Shown here in pieces: positions 13,988 through 27,065 of a stretch of DNA of 64,000 nucleotides (its first letter is position 1; every line of letters begins with the position of its first letter). The DNA is from Scyliorhinus canicula (Eukaryota): contig NC_052154.1 in assembly GCF_902713615.1 (NCBI RefSeq), positions 80,455,072 through 80,519,071 on the forward strand, given 5' to 3'. Under the pieces are notes generated by a model, which did not search any database, was not told the origin of the DNA, and worked only from the letters and a program-made list of their open reading frames with translations. Position numbers and translations under genes: made by a program.

Positions 13988-14933
13988 TGTTGCACGTTTT
14001 ACTATGGGCGTAAAACGCGTTTATTGGAGTGTATTAACACGCCTCCGAGTTCGACGTGTGCTTAACACTACTAGGCTCTGTTGTATGTAATTATTTAGCT
14101 CTGGAGTCGCCAGTTGCCGTATAGACAACGTCACAAGTATTCCAAGGTCAAGTTCAAAGTAATAAAGACGATACACCGATTAGTAAAGTTCAAACGATCA
14201 ATATTTATTATACAGTTATAATAAATACTCATGCACACTAAGAGACTAAGCTATAACTAAACTTAAGTGAACAGAATACTTATCTAACAGGAACAGGCAA
14301 GGTCAGAGAACGAGGCCTTCGTCCTGGTCTTGTACTGCAGCCTTCAGCAAGCGTTCTGGTACTGGGGGTCTAGTGGGCTTGGATCGCGTAGCGAGCGTTG
14401 AACTTACGGTTTCGGCGGCTGGTGCTCAACGGCTGGAGTCAGGATGCAAGATGTCAGTCAGAGCCGGAGCACGAGTTTAACAGACCGGGCTCTGTGGGGA
14501 ATTTGCCTTTATACCCCTCTCTAATGTCCTTGCCCCCTTCTAGGCGGGCTCTACCTTTCGGTACCGATTGGAGCGTTTCCAAACGGCTACCTTCGAAATC
14601 CTCCAATGCGGGGGCTTCCCTCTATGTTGGGGGTGGTTTCGATATTCGTTACTCTGGTGCCATCCTGCCTGCACAACCAATTAAGTGTTACATTGAGATG
14701 GAAATGTTGCCATTGTGTGTGCCTGGATCTGGGCTGCCTCATCAGAATGTTAAGCGCTTTGCCATTAACACCTTTGGCTTGGAGATCTTGCACCTGGCCA
14801 GAAAACTGGTTTGCTGCTTGCAAAATGCTAATTAGTTGAGAGCAGGCTGTCTGTTCTCACTAAACAGGCTTTTCCTTCTGTCTTCCATTTTAGTTTGGCT
14901 CAGTGTCCATTTTGCGTGGCCAGCATGGCTACA
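13988..14933 (-). repeat. 3' LTR (946 bp)
   Basis: Plus strand starts tgttgcacg and ends gcatggctaca; minus-strand TATAAA at 14508-14513 and AATAAA at 14204-14209. Confidence 0.95.
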
Positions 14934-14943
14934 TTCCCTCCTT
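14934..14943 (-). promoter_or_regulatory. Polypurine tract
   Basis: AAGGAGGGAA on minus, directly abutting the 3' LTR. Confidence 0.8.
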
Positions 14944-15264
14944 GTGATCCTCACAATCATACTATTGTGAAGGATCACCTATGTACGTTGCCTTCCTTGT
15001 GTTCTGACCTCTTGCCAGTTCCTGTTCTACTCTATTCTTAAACTATGGGAAGAAGAGAAAAAATTTTTAACTAACATTTCTACTTGGCCCTATGTCAAAG
15101 GGACATGCATTACTACAACTGGGAACCTCTACCTATCACTATTAACCTTAACCTTAACTTAACATTTCATCACTCTAAAACCTTAATCATTCCCACCACA
15201 ACATCACACTTCCCAACTCGGCAGTCGAGTATGGAACAATATAATACATGGCTGAACTTTTTAT

Positions 15265-15621
15265 TTACAGAGTGTTGTAATCAGTGAGGGGTTGAGGGGT
15301 TTGGTGGAATCCGAAGATGGGGGATTGAACTCTATAGATGGGTGAGGTGCTGGAACGAGAGGCTCTCCTCTTCCATTTCCTCAACCTGAGGGTCTGCACT
15401 AGTATGATGAGGATCGCGATCACCAACAGTGATTCGATTATATAGGACATGGAGTACCACGTCATGAATTTAGTGCACCAGGTCTGAACCTCGCTGATCA
15501 GAGCTGAGCACTGGGGGTTTGCTGTAATTGAAACATTTACGGTGGGGGTTGTGGGGGAAACGTGTCTTGTTTCCACACATACACATATAACATTAAACAG
15601 TAATAAGTGGGCTTCCATCAT
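15265..15621 (-). CDS. 118-aa small type I membrane protein in the env position (unknown function)
   Basis: MMEAHLLLFNVICVCVET signal-like segment; ectodomain with NVS sequon and C38/C49; TM YIIESLLVIAILIILVQTL; polybasic RLRKWKRR; C-terminal TDYNTL; good Kozak context (aaaATGATGG). Confidence 0.7.
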   Translation of the reverse strand: MMEAHLLLFNVICVCVETRHVSPTTPTVNVSITANPQCSALISEVQTWCTKFMTWYSMSYIIESLLVIAILIILVQTLRLRKWKRRASRSSTSPIYRVQSPIFGFHQTPQPLTDYNTL

Positions 15622-16564
15622 TTTGCTGTTCTTCTTCTTTCTCTTCCTTCTTCCTCCGGTATTGACAATCCTGGCTTCGACCTCTGTCTCGTCCTTTGAA
15701 ACCTTTGGGATCAAGCACAGTATCTGTCAATACACAGTTTAAGACCTTTACTTGTTAGTGCATCTGTCTTTCAAAACCCAATTGACCCTTTAAAATGACT
15801 GGCTAAGTCACACCCTGTGACTCCCCTCATTTTTTATTTTCAAAAAGCGAATTTAAAGACCAGCATACACCTAACAATCCTTCCTTCTGCGAGCCGTCTC
15901 GCAGGCTGTGCTGATTTACCATCCGAATGTTCCTGGATGTAAATAGCATGTGGGATGGCGGCCGAAGGGCTACCTAACTTAAAATGAAAACAAACTTTGA
16001 AACAAACATCCGAATGAGTTGCGTATGGGCCGCGACGGGTATGAGTTGGATGGAATCCCCGGGTAGGGCGTGCTGTGCCATACCCGAGCTTGGCTGACCA
16101 AGGGTTGGTTCTCAGACAGGGCGGGTCCTCATTGCCGTTTGTCCACTGCCTGAGTAACCTGGAAAAAACGGGTACGAATGTGTTCATCATGACTTGCAGC
16201 CTCTATTTCGCCGAATAGAGGGGCACCTAAAAAAAAAAAACCAAGGGAGCCAAGATGCTCCAACTGAGGACATCACTGAAGTTCTCAGAGATATCTGCAG
16301 ATAAACTATTTGGCGTGTAGCCTTACAACTTTGGAAAGGATCTCCAATCAAACCGAAGTTCTCAAAAGTTTCGGCAGACAAGCTAACGTGTATGTGAGGT
16401 GGTCACAATCTTTTCAGCTGAAAAGAAGATGTCCATCCTCCAGCTGAACAATTTGCAATCCTGAAAACAAACAAACATAAAACGAAGACAAACATACGTG
16501 CAGGTTCCATCAGAAAGGACATCGTTTCCCTCAAACGATTCCTATTTTACATCATCTGGACACC

Positions 16565-19500
16565 TCACTTTGATTCTGCCTCTGTGAACAGGGTCACAAA
16601 GGGGTTGCCGTGTCGGGAGTCAGACACCGTGTCGTCCTGCTCTCCCGGATCCCACACCCTTGTGTGGATCAGGCATGAAACTTTGGAATTGTGTGACCGG
16701 GGGTCACTTTCATCATTGCGGACAAGTCTGTAGGAATTGTCCCTGTGCCATTGTGTAGTGTCGAGTGTGTTGTCGGGGTAGTCGGGGTCGGGTGGTGGTT
16801 CTGGATATTTGAGGTAGGTGACTTCCATGGGGTCACTGGAGTCGGGGTCGTAGTTGGGGCAGTGTGGGCTGTATGGCTGTGTGCTGTCGCTGTCTTCGGA
16901 GTCAGTGTCAGTCCTGCTGTCTCTGCTGTGGCAGCTTGTGGGCGTGTCGGGGCGTGGTCTGTCGTGGTCTGTGGGCGGAGTCGTGGGCGAGTCCGTGGAT
17001 GAACTGGTCTGTGAGGGGGATGGTGGAGAAGTGTCTCTGGTGGGCGGGGTGAAGTGTTCTGCTGCATCCAGCAGGACATGGTGAGCATGGTTGGCCTGTG
17101 TTCCATATGCCTTTAACTGGTTTATATGGAACCACGCGGTCTTCCCATTAGGATACTTTATCCTGTAAACTGAGGGGCTAATTTTGTCCGAAATTGAGTA
17201 GGGACCGGAATATTTTGGAGCCAAAAAACTGCTGGGGTTATAAACAGATAACATTACCTGTTGCCCAACCTGGAATTCTGTGGTGTGTACGGTCTTATTG
17301 AAACAGGCAGTACGTTGCTGTCGGCGTTTCCCTAGCTGGACTGCGGCTGCGATCTGTGCAGACCTCACAGTCTCAACTAGATCTTTAACTGCCTTTTCAT
17401 GTGTGAGGGCCGTCACTTCGGGGCTTGTCATGTCCAGTCCTAAAAGGAATTCTGTACCTTTCATAGGGCGTCCGGTCATGAGTGTATGTGGTGTGTATCC
17501 TGTAGATGTGGAGACAGTGTTCATTATGAACATGAGTGCAAAGGGGAGCACTGAATCCCATGTGGAATTATTCTCTTGAACCATTTTCCTGAGGGTCGTT
17601 TTTAGGGTCCGAAATTGAGTAGGGACCGGAATATTTTGGAGCCAAAAAACTGCTGGGGTTATAAACAGATAACATTACCTGTTGCCCAACCTGGAATTCT
17701 GTGGTGTGTATGGTCTTATTGAAACAGGCAGTACGTTGCTGTCGGCGTTTCCCTAGCTGGACTGCGGCTGCGATCTGTGCAGACCTCACAGTCTCAACTA
17801 GATCTTTAACTGCCTTTTCATGTGTGAGGGCCGTCACTTCGGGGCTTGTCATGTCCAGTCCTAAAAGGAATTCTGTACCTTTCATAGGGCGTCCGGTCAT
17901 GAGTGTATGTGGTGTGTATCCTGTAGATGTGGAGACAGTGTTCCTTATGAACATGAGTGCAAAGGGGAGCACTGAATCCCATGTGGAATTATTCTCTTGA
18001 ACCATTTTCCTGAGGGTCGTTTTTAGGGTCCGATTCATGCGCTCCACAATCCCGCTGGACTGTGGATGATACGCAATATGGAAGTTTTGTTTGATACCGA
18101 ATATTGTCAGGACGTTCCTCATGACCCGTCCTGTAAAGTGAGATCCCTGGTCCGAATCGATACTTCGGGGTAAACCCCATCTCGTGAAGATGTGGTGGGT
18201 CAGGATCTTTGCAGCTGTCTTAGCTGTGTTTGTACGTGATGGAAATGCCTCTACCCATTTTGTAAAGGTATCTATCACCACCAGAACATACTTATAGCCA
18301 TTCCGACAAGGGGGTAATGGACCTATAAAATCGATCTGGAGGTTTGTCCAAGGGCCGTTAACTGGGCGAGTATGCCGAAGTTGTGCTTTCTTAGAATACC
18401 GCTCCGGGTTATTCTGAGCACAAATCAGGCAATTCTCTATATAGTGTGTGACATCTGTCCTGAGATTAGGCCACCAACAGAGTTGCCTGAGGTGCCTCGT
18501 GGTTGAATCAATTCCTTGGTGTCCGTGGTTATCGTGGAATAAAGCAATCATTGCATTTCTATCCTGCTGTGGGACCACATAAAGTTGATCCTTAATGATC
18601 ACACCCTCATGTGTGGTCAGTGCGTGTTTAAAGTGCTCGTACGCAGGCACAAAGTTTCCCTTGAAAACCTCCCTGAGGTCTCCGTCCTGTTTCTGTGCTG
18701 CTACGAGATCTTTAACCTCTGTTTGTGAGACTTGTACTGCGCTCACAGGGGCGCTAGCTGGTGCGCTAGCTGGGGGGGTCCATAAGTGTCCTCTCCTGGA
18801 ACCTGCCTTAGCCAACGCGTCGGCTTTTACATTCCCAGGGGGTGATGACCTATGGTGGCTTCTTACTTTTATTATGCCGAAGGTCCTGTCCTTCGCTTTT
18901 GCTAAAATATGCTGGAGTAGAGGGGCTGATGGAAGGGGTTTTCCGTCTGCGGATACAAAACCTCGTGTCCTCCACAGGGGCAGAAAATCTGTCAAACTGT
19001 TGCATACATATAAACTGTCAGAATATATGTCTGCTGGGCTGGGGAAAGAAGCGGGGTGGTCCACTATATACGCTATGGCTGCTAGCTCTGCTGCCTGCGC
19101 GCCTAAGTGACCGGGTAACTTCAGTGCTATTTCCTCGAGAGCGCACCCCTGCGCGTCCTCGACGTAGATGCCGCATCCAGTGATACGCTCACCATTTAAA
19201 ACTGTGGATGAACCGTCCACGTATATCTTGAGGGGTCCACACGTGTCTGTGTGTGGGGTGCCTTGTGCGGGGTTTCCTAGCTTCCTGGGGGGTGTTTTTG
19301 CTATGAAGGGGCCTGTGTTATGCAGGGGAGCTACAATTTCACAGTCATGGGGCTGTCCGGGGTATTGGAGGTTGTCTGCTAAATATGTGTGTGTGCGTGT
19401 CCGTTTTACAGTAATGTCCCGTCCTTGTAAAAGTAGGGTCCACCTAGCTGCCCTAATCTGGCTAACTGAACCGTCCTTCAGTCGACCGTCTAGTAGTAGC

Positions 19501-21172
19501 TGTGTGGGTGTGTGTTCGGTTAGAATGGTGATGGGGTTTAGTCCGGTTATGTATGAAAAGTACTGTACTGCCCAGAAGACAGCAAGGAGGTGCCTCTCAC
19601 AGGCTGAAAATCCTTGTTCTACCGGGTCTAACAGTCGGGAGGCAACACGGCCGAGAGGGTTAGATCTGTGCTAGCTACCTCGATTGCGTACGGGGAAAGT
19701 TGGTCTGGGACTAGCAGCGCGGGTGCTGCACTAAGGGCTCGTTTTAACTCTTCCACAGCCTCTGTATGCTGCGGAAGCCATTCCCAGGGGGCTCCCTTCT
19801 TAAGGAGGTCTGAAAGTGGGGCGGCTTTTGTCGCGAATCCGTCGATGTGGTTCCGACAATAGCCAACCAGTCCTAAAAACGACCGGAGGGCTGAAACATT
19901 CTGGGGAAGGGGCAATTTGACAATCGAATCAATTCTTTTGAATTCGATCTCGCGTTTGCCGTGCGTGATGACTGATCCCAAATACATCACTTTACTTTCC
20001 AATATCTGGGCCTTTCTGGGGTTAACTTTACATCCAATTGAAGTCAACAATTCCAGGAGTTCGGCCAGAAGCGAAACGTGCTCTGCCTTTGTGTCTGTCT
20101 GCAGTAGTAGGTCGTCTACATACTGTACCAGACATTTGGGGCGGGAAAATTTTTCTAGTCCACTTGCCAGCTGTCGGTGGAAAATGGAGGGGGAATTGTG
20201 GAATCCCTGTGGGAGGCATGTCCACGTATACTGCTGAGTTTTGAAAGTGAATGCAAATTTGTATTGGCACGCTTTTGCCAATGGTATGGACCAGAATCCG
20301 TTACTGATATCCAATACCGTGAAGTACTTGGCGTTGAGACCCTGCTTGAGCATGGTCTCGGGACTAGTAGCTACCGTTGGGGCTACTGCGGGGGTTACTT
20401 TATTGAGTTCCCGATAATCAATGGTCAGATGCCATGATCCATCGGGCTTCCTCACTGGCCAAATAGGGGCATTGTTGGTGGAGGCTACCGTTCTCAGTAC
20501 ACCTTGGTCCAACAAGCTACCTATAACTTTTTCTATTTCCACCTCTGCCTCAAGGGGAAATCTATATTGCTTTTGCGGTCGGGGGTCCTGTCCGGTAACA
20601 TGAACTTGTCCAGTCATTCTGCCACAGTCATGACGGTGACTTGCAAATGCTGTCCTGTGTTTGTTCAGTAGGGCCTTAATTTGTCGGTCGGTGTGGAGTG
20701 TAGTCAGGTCGAATGAGTACTCTCCCACTGCGCTAATCCGATTAGCGTAGTCTCCTACTGTGAGGGTGGCTGGTGCTCTGTCTGCTCTAGCCATGCGCCA
20801 GACACACTGGTTCACTGGGTCGAACGATAAGCTGTGTGTGTTCATAAAATCAATCCCTAGGATGTGTTCTGCTGTCCTGGGAAGGTTTACTAGAACTACG
20901 GGGTGTCTTGTGCTAATGTTCCCTAGCTGAATTGCTATGGGTGCTGTAATGTGCCCCTGCTGCGAGTGTCCGGTGAACCCGCTAAGTGTAATGGTGGAGG
21001 TGGTCGGCCACGTGTCTGAGTGTGCCGTGATCGTGGAGTTAATGGTGGTGCGGGATCCTCCTGTGTCCCACAGTAACTCTATGGGCTTCCCTTTGATTTT
21101 CGCTGTGACTACGGGCCTCCCTGATGAGTCCCATAGTGTGTCACAGACCCAAGTGGGGGAGCCCGGACACCG
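16565..21172 (-). pseudogene. pol: Pro-Pol (protease, RT, degenerate RNase H tether, RNase H, integrase), disrupted
   Basis: Protease LWDTGGS...ILGIDF; RT PVRKPDGSW..IDYRELNK, LDISNGFWS, LPQGFHNSP, YVDD; tether SACERHLLAVFWAV/ILTEHTP; RNase H IYVDGSS, AQAAELAAI, IYSDSLYV, GNVKADALAK; IN HHCC, QIDFIGPLP, IDSDQGSHF, VERMNRTLK, GPY. Frameshifting deletion near 19645 and a 421-bp tandem duplication in IN. Confidence 0.92.
17186..18027. repeat. 421-bp tandem duplication within integrase
   Basis: Units 17186-17606 and 17607-18027, GTCCGA microhomology at 17186, 17607 and 18028, 2 differences between copies; 421 is not a multiple of 3, so the frame shifts. Confidence 0.95.
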
Positions 21173-22921
21173 TCAGTCCGTCTCGTCCACATTGGTGGGT
21201 CCTGACTGTACTGTAACATTATGGATCGGTTTTGACTTGTTGCGGTTCAGAGTGCCTGTCTGCTGGCCTCTCTGAGATCGCTGGGGTGCATTGCACTCTT
21301 TTGCCCAATGCCCTAACTGTCCACAGTTATAGCATTCCTGTCCTTTCTGTTGTGGGCTGCTCTTCCCTTCATTTACCCATGCGGGCTTCTGGTGCTCTCT
21401 GACTGCTTGGATATCTGCAGCAGCCTGAGCCTCTTCTGGGGATCTAACTTTGCCTTTTGCCTGAAGCGATTGCTCCCAAGCGCGGGACAACCTTTTCAGG
21501 ACCCACTTCTCGTTATGGGCCTCTTCTGAGGGGTCATAGCTGTTGCAAGCGCTCTGTCCTGCTTCTGTTGCGTGGGAGATTATTGTGCGCGTCCACTTAA
21601 CCATGTTTTCGCGGGTTAAATGCGCTCTATCTAATTGTCCAAAAACTGCGCTGAAATGAATCCACAGCCTTCCTGCGAATGCTGTGGGGTGTTCGGATCT
21701 TTTCTGCCTGCATTTGTTTAATCCTTCTACTGGGTCACCTCTATTGTACCCAATAGCATCTAAAATGGCGGTGTGCATCTCCTCTAGGCTGCCTCCTGCC
21801 ACGTTCTGTGGGTCGGGGAGGGCTGCTACTACACTTTGGTCTAAACTCAGCACGGTGAGCTTAACCTGCTCTCTCTCATCCAGGCCGTACATGGTAGCCT
21901 GCTGCTTTACTTTAGCAAAGAACTGGTGGGGGTCTGCGGTGGGGAGGAACGGAGTGATCTTTTCACAAGCGTCCCTTAGCTGGGTTACTGTTAAAGGGGT
22001 GGTGTAGGTTATGTCTGGGGCGCCTTCTGATTCGGCTTTTCTCTGCGTGGTTACGGGATTCATGGGTGCGGTTATGGTCTGAGCTGTGGGGGGTTGGGGT
22101 GCCTGTCGTTTCTGCTGAGCTGCTGGCGCACATGTTCCCTGAACATAACGCTGCGCTGTCTCACTTAATTCCTGCCAATCTGGGGCATTTTCCCCATCTA
22201 ACTGTGCTCCAAAGGTGCTTTGGAAGCCATTCTGCACCGAAAGCAGAGATTGCAGTTCCGCAATCTGTTTCCTGCATTTCGCGTGGTCAACTGTGCTTTG
22301 TCTTTGTTCGGTCGTTGCAGCATGGAGTGCTCTCAAAGCTGCTTTGAGATCAGAACATTGCCTCTGCAATGCCTCCACCTGCTTTTCCGATTCCTGTCTT
22401 ATCAGAACGGCACGTTGCACGTCCTGATAGGCTTTCTCATACTGGGTCTGGGAACTGTTCAGATGAGCTAGACAAGACTGGTGAGCCCTCTTGGCATCAT
22501 CCACCTCTCTATCCTTCTCTGCCAACTTCCCTTTTAGATCCAGGTTCTCCTTCTCGATGTCCCTGACATCGACCTTACTCATCCTATTCCTCTCTTCTAA
22601 ATCTGTCCGGAGCGTCCTGATGACCTCCTCTGCGCCTCGCAACTGTGCCAAGCAGGACACAATCGCCATCGGCTTGCGTGCTTTACCTAGGTTCTTTTTG
22701 TGTATTTGAGAGAGGTTCTCCCACCAAGTATGACCTATACTCCCGGGACCTGTCTCCTCATTTGCACAAAACTCTTTCCAAAGGGGCCATCCCTTTCCTT
22801 GTAAATATTTGCGGAGTTCCAGCTCCCACGTGGGACACTGGCCTACCCTGCTACTGTTGCTGGTCGCTGCGACCACAAACTTTGCTGGATCCATCAGACG
22901 TTCCATTGCCTGCATGGCCAT
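21173..22921 (-). CDS. gag: Gag polyprotein (582 aa from MAMQAMERLMDP)
   Basis: Open frame with a coiled-coil region, a capsid-like region and a CCHC zinc knuckle CYNCGQLGHWAKEC; ends at TGA in frame with pro. Confidence 0.9.
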   Translation of the reverse strand: MAMQAMERLMDPAKFVVAATSNSSRVGQCPTWELELRKYLQGKGWPLWKEFCANEETGPGSIGHTWWENLSQIHKKNLGKARKPMAIVSCLAQLRGAEEVIRTLRTDLEERNRMSKVDVRDIEKENLDLKGKLAEKDREVDDAKRAHQSCLAHLNSSQTQYEKAYQDVQRAVLIRQESEKQVEALQRQCSDLKAALRALHAATTEQRQSTVDHAKCRKQIAELQSLLSVQNGFQSTFGAQLDGENAPDWQELSETAQRYVQGTCAPAAQQKRQAPQPPTAQTITAPMNPVTTQRKAESEGAPDITYTTPLTVTQLRDACEKITPFLPTADPHQFFAKVKQQATMYGLDEREQVKLTVLSLDQSVVAALPDPQNVAGGSLEEMHTAILDAIGYNRGDPVEGLNKCRQKRSEHPTAFAGRLWIHFSAVFGQLDRAHLTRENMVKWTRTIISHATEAGQSACNSYDPSEEAHNEKWVLKRLSRAWEQSLQAKGKVRSPEEAQAAADIQAVREHQKPAWVNEGKSSPQQKGQECYNCGQLGHWAKECNAPQRSQRGQQTGTLNRNKSKPIHNVTVQSGPTNVDETD

Positions 22922-23217: not shown

Positions 23218-23235
23218 GTCCCGGCGGAGTCGCCA
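23218..23235 (-). promoter_or_regulatory. Primer binding site, tRNA-Arg(UCU)
   Basis: Plus strand gtcccggcggagtcgcca equals the recalled 3' end of a vertebrate tRNA-Arg(UCU) plus CCA (18/18); separated from the LTR by 5 nt. Confidence 0.85.
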
Positions 23236-23240
23236 CTAAA

Positions 23241-24180
23241 TGTTGCACGTTTTACTATGGGCGTAAAACGCGTTTATTGGAGTGTATTAACACGCCTCCG
23301 AGTTCGACGTGTGCTTAACACTACTAGGCTCTGTTGTATGTAATTATTTAGCTCTGGAGTCGCCAGTTGCCGTATAGACAACGTCACAAGTATTCCAAGG
23401 TCAAGTTCAAAGTAATAAAGACGATACACCGATTAGTAAAGTTCAAACGATCAATATTTATTATACAGTTATAATAAATACTCATGCACACTAAGAGACT
23501 AAGCTATAACTAAACTTAAGTGAACAGAATACTTATCTAACAGGAACAGGCAAGGTCAGAGAACGAGGCCTTCGTCCTGGTCTTGTACTGCAGCCTTCAG
23601 CAAGCGTTCTGGTACTGGGGGTCTAGTGGGCTTGGATCGCGTAGCGAGCGTTGAACTTACGGTTTCGGCGGCTGGTGCTCAACGGCTGGAGTCAGGATGC
23701 AAGATGTCAGTCAGAGCCGGAGCACGAGTTTAACAGACCGGGCTCTGTGGGGAATTTGCCTTTATACCCCTCTCTAATGTCCTTGCCCCCTTCTAGGCGG
23801 GCTCTACCTTTCGGTACCGATTGGAGCGTTTCCAAACGGATACCTTCGAAATCCTCCGATCCTTCCCTCTATGTTGGGGGTGGTTTCGATATTCGTTACT
23901 CTGGTGCCATCCTGCCTGCACAACCAATTAAGTGTTACATTGAGATGGAAATGTTGCCATTGTGTGTGCCTGGATCTGGGCTGCCTCATCAGAATGTTAA
24001 GCGCTTTGCCATTAACACCTTTGGCTTGGAGATCTTGCACCTGGCCAGAAAACTGGTTTGCTGCTTGCAAAATGCTAATTAGTTGAGAGCAGGCTGTCTG
24101 TTCTCACTAAACAGGCTTTTCCTTCTGTCTTCCATTTTAGTTTGGCTCAGTGTCCATTTTGCGTGGCCAGCATGGCTACA
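23241..24180 (-). repeat. 5' LTR (940 bp)
   Basis: Matches 13988-14933 except one substitution (aaacggCtacc vs aaacggAtacc) and one short replaced patch 6 nt shorter; minus-strand TATAAA at 23761-23766. Confidence 0.95.
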
Positions 24181-24849: not shown

Positions 24850-27065
24850 GCTATTAAACATGATTATGATGCCCCCGGAAGGTAGAGAGGTGGAGGTAGA
24901 GGTCGCAATGGACGCAGAGAAGGCATTTGATCGAGTAGAATGGGAATATCTGTGGTAGGTACTGGGACGGTTCGGATTTGGGCGGGGCTTTATTGACTGG
25001 GCCAGGTTGCTGTATCAGGCTCCTGTGGCAAGTGTACGAATGAATAGGACAACATCGGACTACTTTAGGCTGCATCTGGGGACGAGGCAGGGTTGCCCCC
25101 TCTCCCCACTGTTGTTTGTGCTAGCTATAGAGCCACTGACAATTGTTCTGAGAGCTTCAAGGGGCTGGAGGGGGCTGAACCGGTGGGGGGAGGGGGGGGG
25201 GGGGTGGAGCACAGAGTTTATGCAGACAATCTGCTCCTGCTTTATGCAGATGACCTACTCCTGTATGTATCGGACCCAATAGAGGGGGTGGAAGAATTCA
25301 TGAAGATTCCAGGGGAATTTGGCCGGTGTTTGGGGTATAAGCTAAATATGGAGAAAAGTGAGATGTTTGCGGTCCAGGCAAGGGGACAGGAGAGGCGATT
25401 GGGGGAGCTGCTGTTTAGACTAATGGGGGAAGCTTTAGGTATCTAGGCATCCAAGTGGCCCGGGAGTGGGACTGGCTGCATAAATTAAATCTGGCCCGAC
25501 TAGTAGATCAAATGAAGGACGATTTTCGGAGATGTGACATGCTTCTGTTGTCACTAGGTGGGAAGGTGCAGACGGTGAAGATGACGGTCCTCCTGTGATT
25601 CCTGTTTGTATTACAGTCTCTCCCCATCTTTATCCCGAGATCCTTTTTTAAATGGGTCAACAAAGTGATCACTGGCTTTGTTTGGGCGGGAAAGACCCCG
25701 CGAGTAAGGAAGGTAATGCTTAAGCGGAGTCGGGGAGAGGGCGGGCTGCTATTGCCAAATTTTAGTAACTATTACTGGGCGGTAAATATAGCCATGATTA
25801 GGAAGTGGGTGGGTGGGGGAAGGGTTGGCATTGGAGCGTATAGAGTTGGCTTAATGCAAGGGCACCAGTTTGGGGTCATTGGTAACTGCGCCTCTGTCAT
25901 TCCCGTCGGCATGGTACTCCACCAGCCCCATGGTGGTGGCAGCCCTGAGAGTCTGGGGGCAATGGAGGAGACATGTGGGAGCAGATGGAGCATCGGTTTG
26001 GTCTCCAATCTGTAATAATCGCCAGTTTGCCCCGGGAAGGCTGGAGTGGGTTTCCAGAGATGGCGGAGAGCAGGGATTGAGAGGATGGGGGTTATGTTTA
26101 TAAAGGGGACCTTTCTGCGTTTGAGGGCATTGGAGGAGAAGTTTGGATTGGCGAGGGGAAACAAATTGAGGTACCTGCAGGTGCGGGACTTCCTACGTAG
26201 ACAGGTTTCAACCTTCCCGCTCCTACCACTAAGGGGGATTCAGGACAGGGTAGTTTCCAGAGGGTGGGTGGGAGAAGGGAGCATCTCTGACATTTACAAG
26301 GAACTTATGGAGTCAGAGGAGACGCAGAATGAGGAGCTGAAGCGCAAGTGGGAGGAGGAGCTGGGAGGAGAGATAGATGATGGTCTATGGTAGAGCCAAC
26401 GTGTCCACAACATTTGCCAGGCTCAGCCTGATACAATTCAAGGTTGTTCATCGGGCACACGTGACAGTGTCCCGGATAAGCAGATTCTTTGGGGTGGAAT
26501 ACCGGTGTGCAAAGCGTGCGGGAGGGCCAGTGAACCATATCCACATGTTCTGGGCATGTCCAAAGCTTAGGGGATTTTGGCAGGGGTTTGCAGATGTCAT
26601 GTCCACGGTGTTAAAAACAAGGGTGGCACCGAGTCTGGAGGTGGCGATTTTCGGGGTGTCGGAAGATCCGGGAATCCAGGAGGAGAAAAAGGCAGACGTT
26701 CTGGCCTTTGCTTCCCTGGTAGCCCAGTGATGGGTACTATTAGCTTGAAAGCCCCCGATGTCGGAGACCTGGCTATTGGACATGGCTAGCTTTCTCTGAC
26801 TGGAGAAAATTAAGTTCGCCCTGAGAGGGTCAATGTTAGGGTTCTCCCGGAGGTGGCAACCGTTCATCGACTTCTTTGTGGAAAATTAATCGTCAGCAGA
26901 AGTGGGGGGGGGGGGGGGGGGGGTTAGTTTAGCTTACAGTAGGGGGTTAATAAAGGTGGGACCTGTAAGGGAGGGAGACGGCTTTTGCACTATGTTTATA
27001 CATTCATGTACATTGTTTCTTTTGTTGTTGTAAAACCAAAAATACCTCAATAAAATGTTTATTAA
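24850..27065 (+). mobile_element. 5'-truncated L1-clade LINE (degenerate ORF2)
   Basis: RT motifs (HLGTRQGCPLSPLLFVLAIEPL, LYADDLLLY), C-terminal C..C.....HIHMFWACP, AATAAA and A-rich tail at about 27048-27075; many stops and frameshifts. Confidence 0.9.

Follow-up and report, generated by a model that had tools for sequence, protein, structure and literature searches.

An env-less retrovirus lineage of the catshark Scyliorhinus canicula keeps a gene for a small predicted membrane protein in the env position under strong purifying selection

A retrovirus lineage in the genome of the catshark S. canicula, env-less and with many uninterrupted pol frames, retains one small predicted surface protein across five subfamilies. 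The open reading frame (ORF) that encodes it is a real gene, under strong purifying selection about equal to that on reverse transcriptase (RT) and gag, and selection maintains it within the replication cycle of the element. The product is predicted to be a type I membrane glycoprotein and matches no known family, and the gene appears to found a new family of small membrane proteins. We tentatively suggest that it stands in for Env. The copy described here lies in a 64,000-nt stretch of contig NC_052154.1 (hereafter, the window), and all coordinates are window positions.

The element is a 10.2-kb minus-strand LTR-gag-pol element, flanked by a 4-bp target duplication with one mismatch, in which a 118-aa ORF occupies the env position. 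Its parts are as follows:

13988..14933, minus strand: 3′ LTR, 99.2% identical to the 5′ LTR, with TG...CA termini
14934..14944, minus strand: polypurine tract, a purine run adjoining the 3′ LTR
15265..15621, minus strand: gene for the 118-aa small membrane protein, in the env position (ATG at 15621, stop at 15265)
15807..15821, minus strand: cis element, a conserved 5-bp inverted repeat that follows an A-run and a purine tract, present in 87 of 99 copies
16565..21172, minus strand: pol, with protease, RT, tether, RNase H and integrase by Pfam (a tether plus a second RNase H)
21173..22921, minus strand: gag, 582 aa, with one CCHC knuckle and no Gly2; its UGA stop is in frame with pol
23218..23235, minus strand: primer binding site for tRNA-Arg(TCT), complementary to the 3′ end of the host tRNA-Arg(TCT) gene
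23241..24180, minus strand: 5′ LTR, 99.2% identical to 13988–14933

The ORF starts 943 nt past the pol stop at 16565 and ends roughly 330 nt from the 3′ LTR. An earlier note on this DNA had described an intact ORF of 118 aa with a set of membrane-protein features and had seen no env between the pol stop and the polypurine tract. Translation and hydropathy recover those features in the window copy, and no env-sized frame lies between the pol stop at 16565 and the 3′ LTR at 14933. Shuffling the 1,631-nt interval from pol to LTR 1,000 times produced an ATG-initiated ORF of at least 118 aa in 15 cases. The pol gene of the window copy is itself broken, by a small deletion near 19640 and by a tandem duplication of about 420 nt in integrase, as seen from self-matching and from comparison with sister copies. 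In the window-copy sequence, Gag has none of the PPxY, PT/SAP and YPxL motifs; a crude heptad test found no coiled coil in it, and its Pfam matches to helical families are weak (E 0.05–0.2). The gag stop UGA is followed by CGG (21170–21178, minus strand), and UGA-CGG is a leaky stop context in alphaviruses. OVEX1 is described as having an amber stop at the gag–pol position, a feature likened there to SnRV. The host tRNA-Arg(TCT) gene was called by ARAGORN in one of four loci scanned. Adjoining the 5′ LTR, fragments of a non-LTR retrotransposon reverse transcriptase can be read by eye from the ORF list (24959–26239, plus strand).

The element is very abundant, with more than 5,000 first-look candidates, and represents a large env-less lineage of catsharks. 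Protein searches returned 5,165–5,391 such candidates and DNA searches with the young subfamily A returned 1,971 and 1,785; these are not copy numbers, 40–150 candidates having been scored per search. We assembled 99 copies in five subfamilies (29 in A, 30 in B, 25 in C, 3 in D and 12 in E), leaving aside two unassigned copies, the truncated copy of A and, because of frameshifts upstream, 8 of the 20 E loci. At the nucleotide level, the ORF of subfamily A differs from those of B–D by 32–42%. An uninterrupted pol frame of 1,408 codons occurs in three of eight A stretches and in 14 of the best 25 matches to an RT search; because so many copies retain such a frame, the family must be young.

The earlier note had allowed that the ORF might be broken in sister copies, might evolve at a dN/dS of about 1 or might be a remnant of, or a capture into, a full env. 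None of this was borne out, and the reading as a dedicated small membrane gene in an env-less retroelement stands. Of 30 copies picked through a stretch outside the ORF, the window copy among them, 28 have an intact ORF; of the other two, one is frameshifted and truncated and one carries a stop at codon 107. All of 20 ten-kb stretches, drawn from all five subfamilies, have pol remains that stop about 0.9–1.1 kb before the ORF, and none of these 20 long copies has an env-sized frame in between. The distance from ORF to LTR is about 330–370 nt in A and B, the two subfamilies checked. The interval between pol and ORF (about 940 nt) is non-coding, with no conserved frame; 18 ATGs separate the pol stop from the start of the ORF, and within the 260 nt preceding its ATG no upstream ORF shows a consistently constrained frame.

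The ratio of non-synonymous to synonymous change is far from 1. For residues 46–111, comparison of the window copy with individual natural copies (two of B, then one each of C, D and E) gave dN/dS values of 0.10, 0.10, 0.13, 0.13 and 0.15, in that order (Fisher p ≤ 2e-7; bootstrap upper bounds 0.22–0.35). Elsewhere in the element, using other copies of B, D and E, the values are 0.08–0.14 for RT, 0.08–0.12 for gag and 0.02–0.05 for integrase. Ten comparisons between subfamilies gave 0.09–0.32 for residues 46–111 and 0.12–0.51 for the whole ORF; the signal region ranges from 0.1 to 1.6 where it is computable. Its N-terminal hydrophobicity survives this turnover of sequence, and the glycosylation sequon persists although its middle residue changes. 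Between subfamilies, synonymous sites are 58–70% different and non-synonymous sites 10–26% different. In single old copies, private variants show pN/pS of 0.63–0.82, closer to neutral decay, in a set chosen by protein likeness, which biases the ratios downwards. A test for indel depletion in the ORF was null (p=0.49) and is confounded by compensating alignment pairs.

In the window copy, the protein has a hydrophobic N-terminus (approximately residues 3–16), a sequon at N29, cysteines at 38 and 49, aromatic residues at 48, 52, 55, 56 and 60 and, by hydropathy, a single transmembrane segment (approximately residues 61–77) containing E63, followed by a basic patch and a tail ending in YNTL. Read from the N-terminus, the predicted parts are as follows:

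15568..15621, minus strand: predicted signal peptide, residues 1–18, variable in sequence, with a hydrophobic core and a (-3,-1) small-residue site
15487..15567, minus strand: Ser/Thr/Pro-rich stalk with the N-x-S/T sequon at N29 (S/T/P 42–57% by subfamily)
15439..15486, minus strand: aromatic amphipathic helix beside the membrane (W48, C49, W55, Y56, Y60), helical in AF2
15391..15438, minus strand: transmembrane helix by hydropathy, with E63 in 99 of 99 copies
15355..15390, minus strand: juxtamembrane basic patch, 6–7 K/R within 15 residues past the transmembrane helix (subfamily A)
15268..15354, minus strand: cytoplasmic tail, with Y96, G104 and P109 kept and the last six residues not

A simple, permissive rule for signal peptides, under which cleavage is predicted, is satisfied by 98 of 99 copies, and the stalk sequon is present in 91 of 99. 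Between 44 and 57 residues precede the conserved W-C pair. The amphipathic character of the juxtamembrane helix is modest: its hydrophobic moment is 0.54–0.67, and four of five representatives reach or approach the 0.55 cut (p=0.04 by shuffling). Residues found in at least 60% of copies in every one of the five subfamilies are T47, W48, C49, W55, Y56, S57, S59, Y60, E63, L65, L66, A69, V75, Q76, T77, R79, K82, W83, R85–A87, Y96, G104 and P109. Two features to which the earlier note had drawn attention do not generalize: C38 and Y115 occur in 29 of 29 subfamily-A copies and in none of 70 copies of B–E, and a terminal YxxL/I/V is likewise absent from all 70, so the C38–C49 loop and the 'ITSM-like' tail belong to the young subfamily A only. 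An extra cysteine in the transmembrane segment is present in 65 of the 70 B–E copies and absent from A. No copy of the 99 begins with MGxxxS/T. The first homologues also showed a YxxQ (STAT3-type) motif in the tail, which we set aside given its absence from subfamilies C–E. AF2 models a helix at residues 2–19, a loose stalk (coil, mostly of low confidence) and one helix at 36–91, with a mean pLDDT of 66; a homodimer prediction for residues 36–92 scored 0.05.

A RefSeq protein labelled S. canicula is 100% identical to the genome sequence over the 114 aa searched. Outside the S. canicula genome, homologues of the ORF were found in S. torazame only. A word-index protein search with the ORF returned nothing at E≤1 among four candidates, and a search with a 13-sequence alignment returned one S. 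torazame match (E 0.004). Longer RefSeq models carry unrelated N-terminal extensions that are not continued in the genomic frame and are likely to be spliced-on host exons. In S. torazame, an isoform model of a HEPACAM2-like host gene with Ig domains ends in an ORF stalk, transmembrane segment and basic patch of the subfamily E type, possibly an exonization that adds a retroviral membrane anchor to a host protein, or else an artefact of the gene model. Comparison with known families, as the earlier note had proposed, gave no significant match: none was found by PDB profile search, in Pfam, PHROGs or Rfam, or by Foldseek against viral models and the ESM atlas (where the top match, at 0.88, is unnamed), and neither Foldseek, the PDB profiles nor Pfam links the protein to any fusogen by sequence or fold. 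Below the Pfam cut-off, TMEM156 matched 8 of 13 members, adenovirus E3A 4 of 13 and K1 2 of 13 (best E 0.006–0.12). The retroviral Env hallmarks sought (TLV_coat, F-like loki Env; furin site, fusion peptide, heptad) yielded no Pfam match. The same genome holds unrelated env-bearing ERVs, several with uninterrupted env frames of 563 codons; against Env of 25 such loci, in a very small search, the ORF profile found no match (best E ~3), and their integrases are only 21–38% identical to that of the element. Full-text searches, which do not cover Repbase or most subscription papers, returned no account of this gene or of an SnRV-like ERV that lacks env and carries a small membrane ORF, and no match for the two S. 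canicula RefSeq locus identifiers.

The element likely belongs to an SnRV-related lineage, judging by sequence comparison. Among solved relatives of its pol, the enzymes of foamy virus and MLV rank best, above those of Ty3, and the nearest named database proteins are from coelacanth, whose main ERV class is described as SnRV-like. The RT motif of the element occurs three times in the supplement of PMC7947760, and both places shown are in the SnRV row; compared by eye with the rows of that supplement, the first RT block is identical to SnRV at 30 of 53 positions and to MuLV at 21 of 53. Because our RT tree, in which coelacanth proteins lie near the element, lacked an SnRV sequence and left the deep fork unsettled, the placement is likely rather than proven. 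A sister clade (P0001/P0035) shares 72–74% RT identity. A single Gag zinc finger, a Gag without myristoylation and gag–pol in one frame, described as features of SnRV, are all present here. The element's primer binding site is for tRNA-Arg, the primer that SnRV reportedly uses. The UGA stop after gag is a difference from the SnRV clade. SnRV and CmiERV-I of the elephant shark are described as having env, unlike the catshark element, and SnRV as having accessory ORFs of 52, 76, 94 and 205 aa, in contrast to the one 3′ membrane-protein ORF here. An identity with ERV-Spuma.0-Sca, as described in PMC10699275, was rejected: the host species is the same, but the element differs in its LTR start, in its gag and pol lengths and in an annotated 1.3-kb env. 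The tether and second RNase H recall accounts of Lokiretroviruses and Odin. The former, with no report in sharks among the sources covered, carry an F-like Env that the catshark element lacks (a strict first look, which is a weak test, found no match to PF00523 in the catshark genome); the latter, from cnidarians, is described as having gag and pol only, to which the catshark element adds the ORF. A metagenome integrase scan returned 18 loci with best segments 26–38% identical and one short segment at 54%, no close relative among them, and none of the 18 matches the ORF profile.

Seven of the 30 subfamily-B copies are pol-less derivatives with the structure LTR-gag-ORF-LTR, all sharing one breakpoint just beyond the end of pol. 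They are about 5.8–6.4 kb long, with LTR pairs 95–97.5% identical and 4-bp target duplications in five of five checked, and their synonymous distance to subfamily B equals the distance within B. The ORF is stop-free in six of the seven. They match window positions 15265–16510 plus gag, with about 500 nt of unrelated sequence after gag. Retention of gag and the ORF without pol fits a protein that acts with Gag; it could instead be due to RNA signals that act in cis within this 3′ block, or to recombination between derivatives and full elements. That block contains, at 15807–15841 (minus strand), an A-run, a purine tract, the inverted repeat with a 5-nt spacer and then a TATA-like word, a grouping that may represent either an internal promoter element or a central polypurine tract.

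The earlier note had looked to RNA sequencing for spliced transcripts. Sense RNA covers the ORF in bulk runs, and no splice joint into it was listed. We mapped four RNA runs from two studies to a sister copy; three are bulk oligo-dT runs of one study, and the fourth, a single-cell run, was uneven and was excluded. Since the reads come from many copies, they are uninformative on the window copy itself. In the bulk runs, reads fall about 25–60:1 on the strand that represents sense RNA under the usual stranded protocol, and the ORF bin is covered to depths of 48, 106 and 117 against gag–pol means of about 5, 26 and 22, a 4–10-fold excess that begins with a step near the end of pol. Related subfamilies account for some of the hump seen upstream of the ORF (loose ends), with 3′ bias or deleted copies as possible further contributors. 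In the four runs, no joint spliced into the ORF region was listed, although joints with three reads were. Acceptor-like sites lie at 16461 and 15724 (minus strand) and donor-like words at about 23660 and 23210, the depth step falling near the first acceptor-like site; an internal start is possible. A search of indexed sequencing runs listed none that contains such RNA.

What the protein does is best explained, in our tentative view, by its standing in for Env and helping capsids to move from one cell to another where the two touch, such as from supporting somatic cells into germ cells, an explanation that we rate as possible but somewhat short of probable. As predicted from sequence, the glycosylated stalk would lie outside the cell, the amphipathic aromatic helix on the outer leaflet and, beyond the single transmembrane segment, the basic patch and tyrosine-bearing tail inside. 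The basic patch would route the protein to the plasma membrane, the tail would gather non-myristoylated Gag capsids or an actin-linked adaptor, and the helix, clustered through Cys49 and Glu63, would perturb the membrane at close contacts, an action like that of FAST and sORF2 proteins without membership of that family. Constraint near that on RT and gag, the lack of env in all 20 long copies, retention of the ORF together with gag in the pol-less derivative and the excess of sense RNA over the ORF in the three bulk runs argue for such a role, as do a Gag without Gly2 and a layout that shares most features of sORF2 and FAST proteins; a surface protein would, moreover, be of no evident use to an element copying inside one cell. 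Set against it are a predicted signal peptide and glycan, of which the former is absent from FAST proteins and the latter not relied on by them (PMC3952855), and a glycosylated stalk that should hamper membrane apposition. Neither known FAST fusion module is present, there is no sequence or fold link to fusogens, the missing splice joint leaves the translation route unexplained and the pol-less retention may stem from cis RNA signals or recombination. An invariant glutamate in a transmembrane segment, such as E63, is more typical of partner-binding membrane proteins. That the protein is a fusogen of a new class, signal-peptide-bearing, glycosylated and of about 100 residues, which replaced Env and spreads the element from soma to germline by cell-to-cell fusion, we consider unlikely.

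A glutamate of this kind would be at home in an immune modulator or restriction-factor antagonist, a membrane-bound accessory protein comparable to Vpu, the adenovirus E3 proteins or an immune adaptor that no longer signals; we regard this as somewhat unlikely, and hold with the same reserve its mechanism, in which a host membrane protein would be bound through the transmembrane glutamate and re-routed through the tyrosine-bearing tail. A signal peptide, glycan, Ser/Thr/Pro stalk, one transmembrane segment and a short tyrosine tail are the usual build of immune-modulator proteins, which this protein matches; E63 is present in every copy, SnRV is described as carrying several accessory ORFs, and TMEM156, adenovirus E3A and K1 are the families to which Pfam points, every match below its cut-off. 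In most of the best ungapped alignments, E63 of subfamilies A, B and D is in register with the Asp of two catshark zeta/FcR-gamma transmembrane segments, but the scores (5–17) do not exceed those of unrelated env transmembrane controls (5–21; core-shuffle p 0.05–0.56). The terminal YxxL is unconserved, the Y96/Y115 spacing fits no ITAM and selection through thousands of germline insertions is not readily explained by a somatic immune function. Homology to CD3-zeta/FcR-gamma was rejected, with scores not above controls and no ITAM; the two zeta/FcR-gamma family exons had been found as controls, and the four PF11628 matches in the genome include none of the ORF loci fetched. Quite unlikely, in our judgement, is a cut-down Env stem, made up of the signal peptide, membrane-proximal region, transmembrane segment and tail that remain after loss of SU and the fusion core, which serves only to recruit Gag to membranes for budding while entry proceeds through the envelopes of other ERVs or vesicle uptake. 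Its position, an aromatic helix before the transmembrane segment that resembles the membrane-proximal regions of catshark env C-termini, a Gag with neither Gly2 nor PPxY, PT/SAP or YPxL and the uninterrupted 563-codon env frames elsewhere in the genome suit such a stem, and the SnRV lineage once had env, since a chimaera SnRV-like ERV (CmiERV-I) is defined by having one. Yet the ORF profile is unmatched in the 25 env-bearing loci, a comparison among elements of 21–38% integrase identity that lies outside SnRV Env, and the interval between pol and ORF has no conserved frame. Finally, the missing splice joint, the 18 intervening ATGs and the null indel test would suit a frame that encodes no functional protein and survives through the youth of its copies or conserved RNA or DNA signals. 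The excess of synonymous (58–70%) over non-synonymous (10–26%) divergence, with a sequon and an N-terminal hydrophobicity that outlast changes in the underlying residues, makes this highly improbable.

ERVs without env are regarded as replicating solely within a single cell, and some screens are described as dropping Pol hits without a downstream env. If the protein does carry capsids between cells, Env-independent infectivity, so far shown in fly retrotransposons, would also have arisen in a retrovirus lineage of vertebrates, through a protein built differently. A fusogen of a new class would be a Retroviridae counterpart of fly sORF2 in one of the most successful catshark ERV families, and a modulator would represent a new family of small viral membrane proteins in cartilaginous fish.

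The earlier note had likened the protein to the reovirus FAST fusogens. The likeness to p10, p14, p15 and p22, described as small proteins with one N-out transmembrane segment and a polybasic motif of 3–8 residues, holds for size (118 aa, within the FAST range of about 100–200 aa), the single transmembrane segment with a short ectodomain, the juxtamembrane polybasic motif and, modestly, the amphipathic ectodomain motif. It fails elsewhere. FAST proteins are described as having a reverse signal anchor with no signal peptide and no reliance on glycosylation (PMC3952855), and their fusion modules as a myristate or an ectodomain cystine loop; the catshark protein has a predicted signal N-terminus in 98 of 99 copies and a sequon in 91, MGxxxS/T in none and C38 in subfamily A alone. 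Lacking a myristoylation motif and a conserved cystine loop and having a predicted signal peptide, the product is probably not a FAST protein, although it may work like one.

The closest parallel in design is sORF2 of the Drosophila MDG1 group, described as a small transmembrane protein that carries env-less capsids from the soma into the oocyte (10.1101/2025.03.14.642691). The earlier note had called the design undescribed; because env-less insect elements with a small FAST-like ORF have already been reported, the general design is not, and what appears to be new is that it occurs in a retrovirus lineage of vertebrates and involves another type of protein, a case that we did not find in the literature covered. 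The screen in that work is described as one of arthropod Gypsy elements, and the sORF2 proteins belong to insect Metaviridae, are 63–107 aa long, mostly carry MGxxxS/T and have no sequence link to the catshark protein; the main text of that source has no mention of a signal peptide, which is predicted here. The function of sORF2 has been shown in flies (10.1101/2025.03.14.642691), whereas a comparable role for the catshark protein is proposed here. In layout, the two nevertheless coincide for the most part: both are small ORFs in env-less LTR elements, with a single transmembrane segment, a short ectodomain with an amphipathic motif and a juxtamembrane basic patch of at least three K/R past the membrane, and two of the six fly proteins, like the catshark ORF, are without myristoylation (10.1101/2025.03.14.642691).
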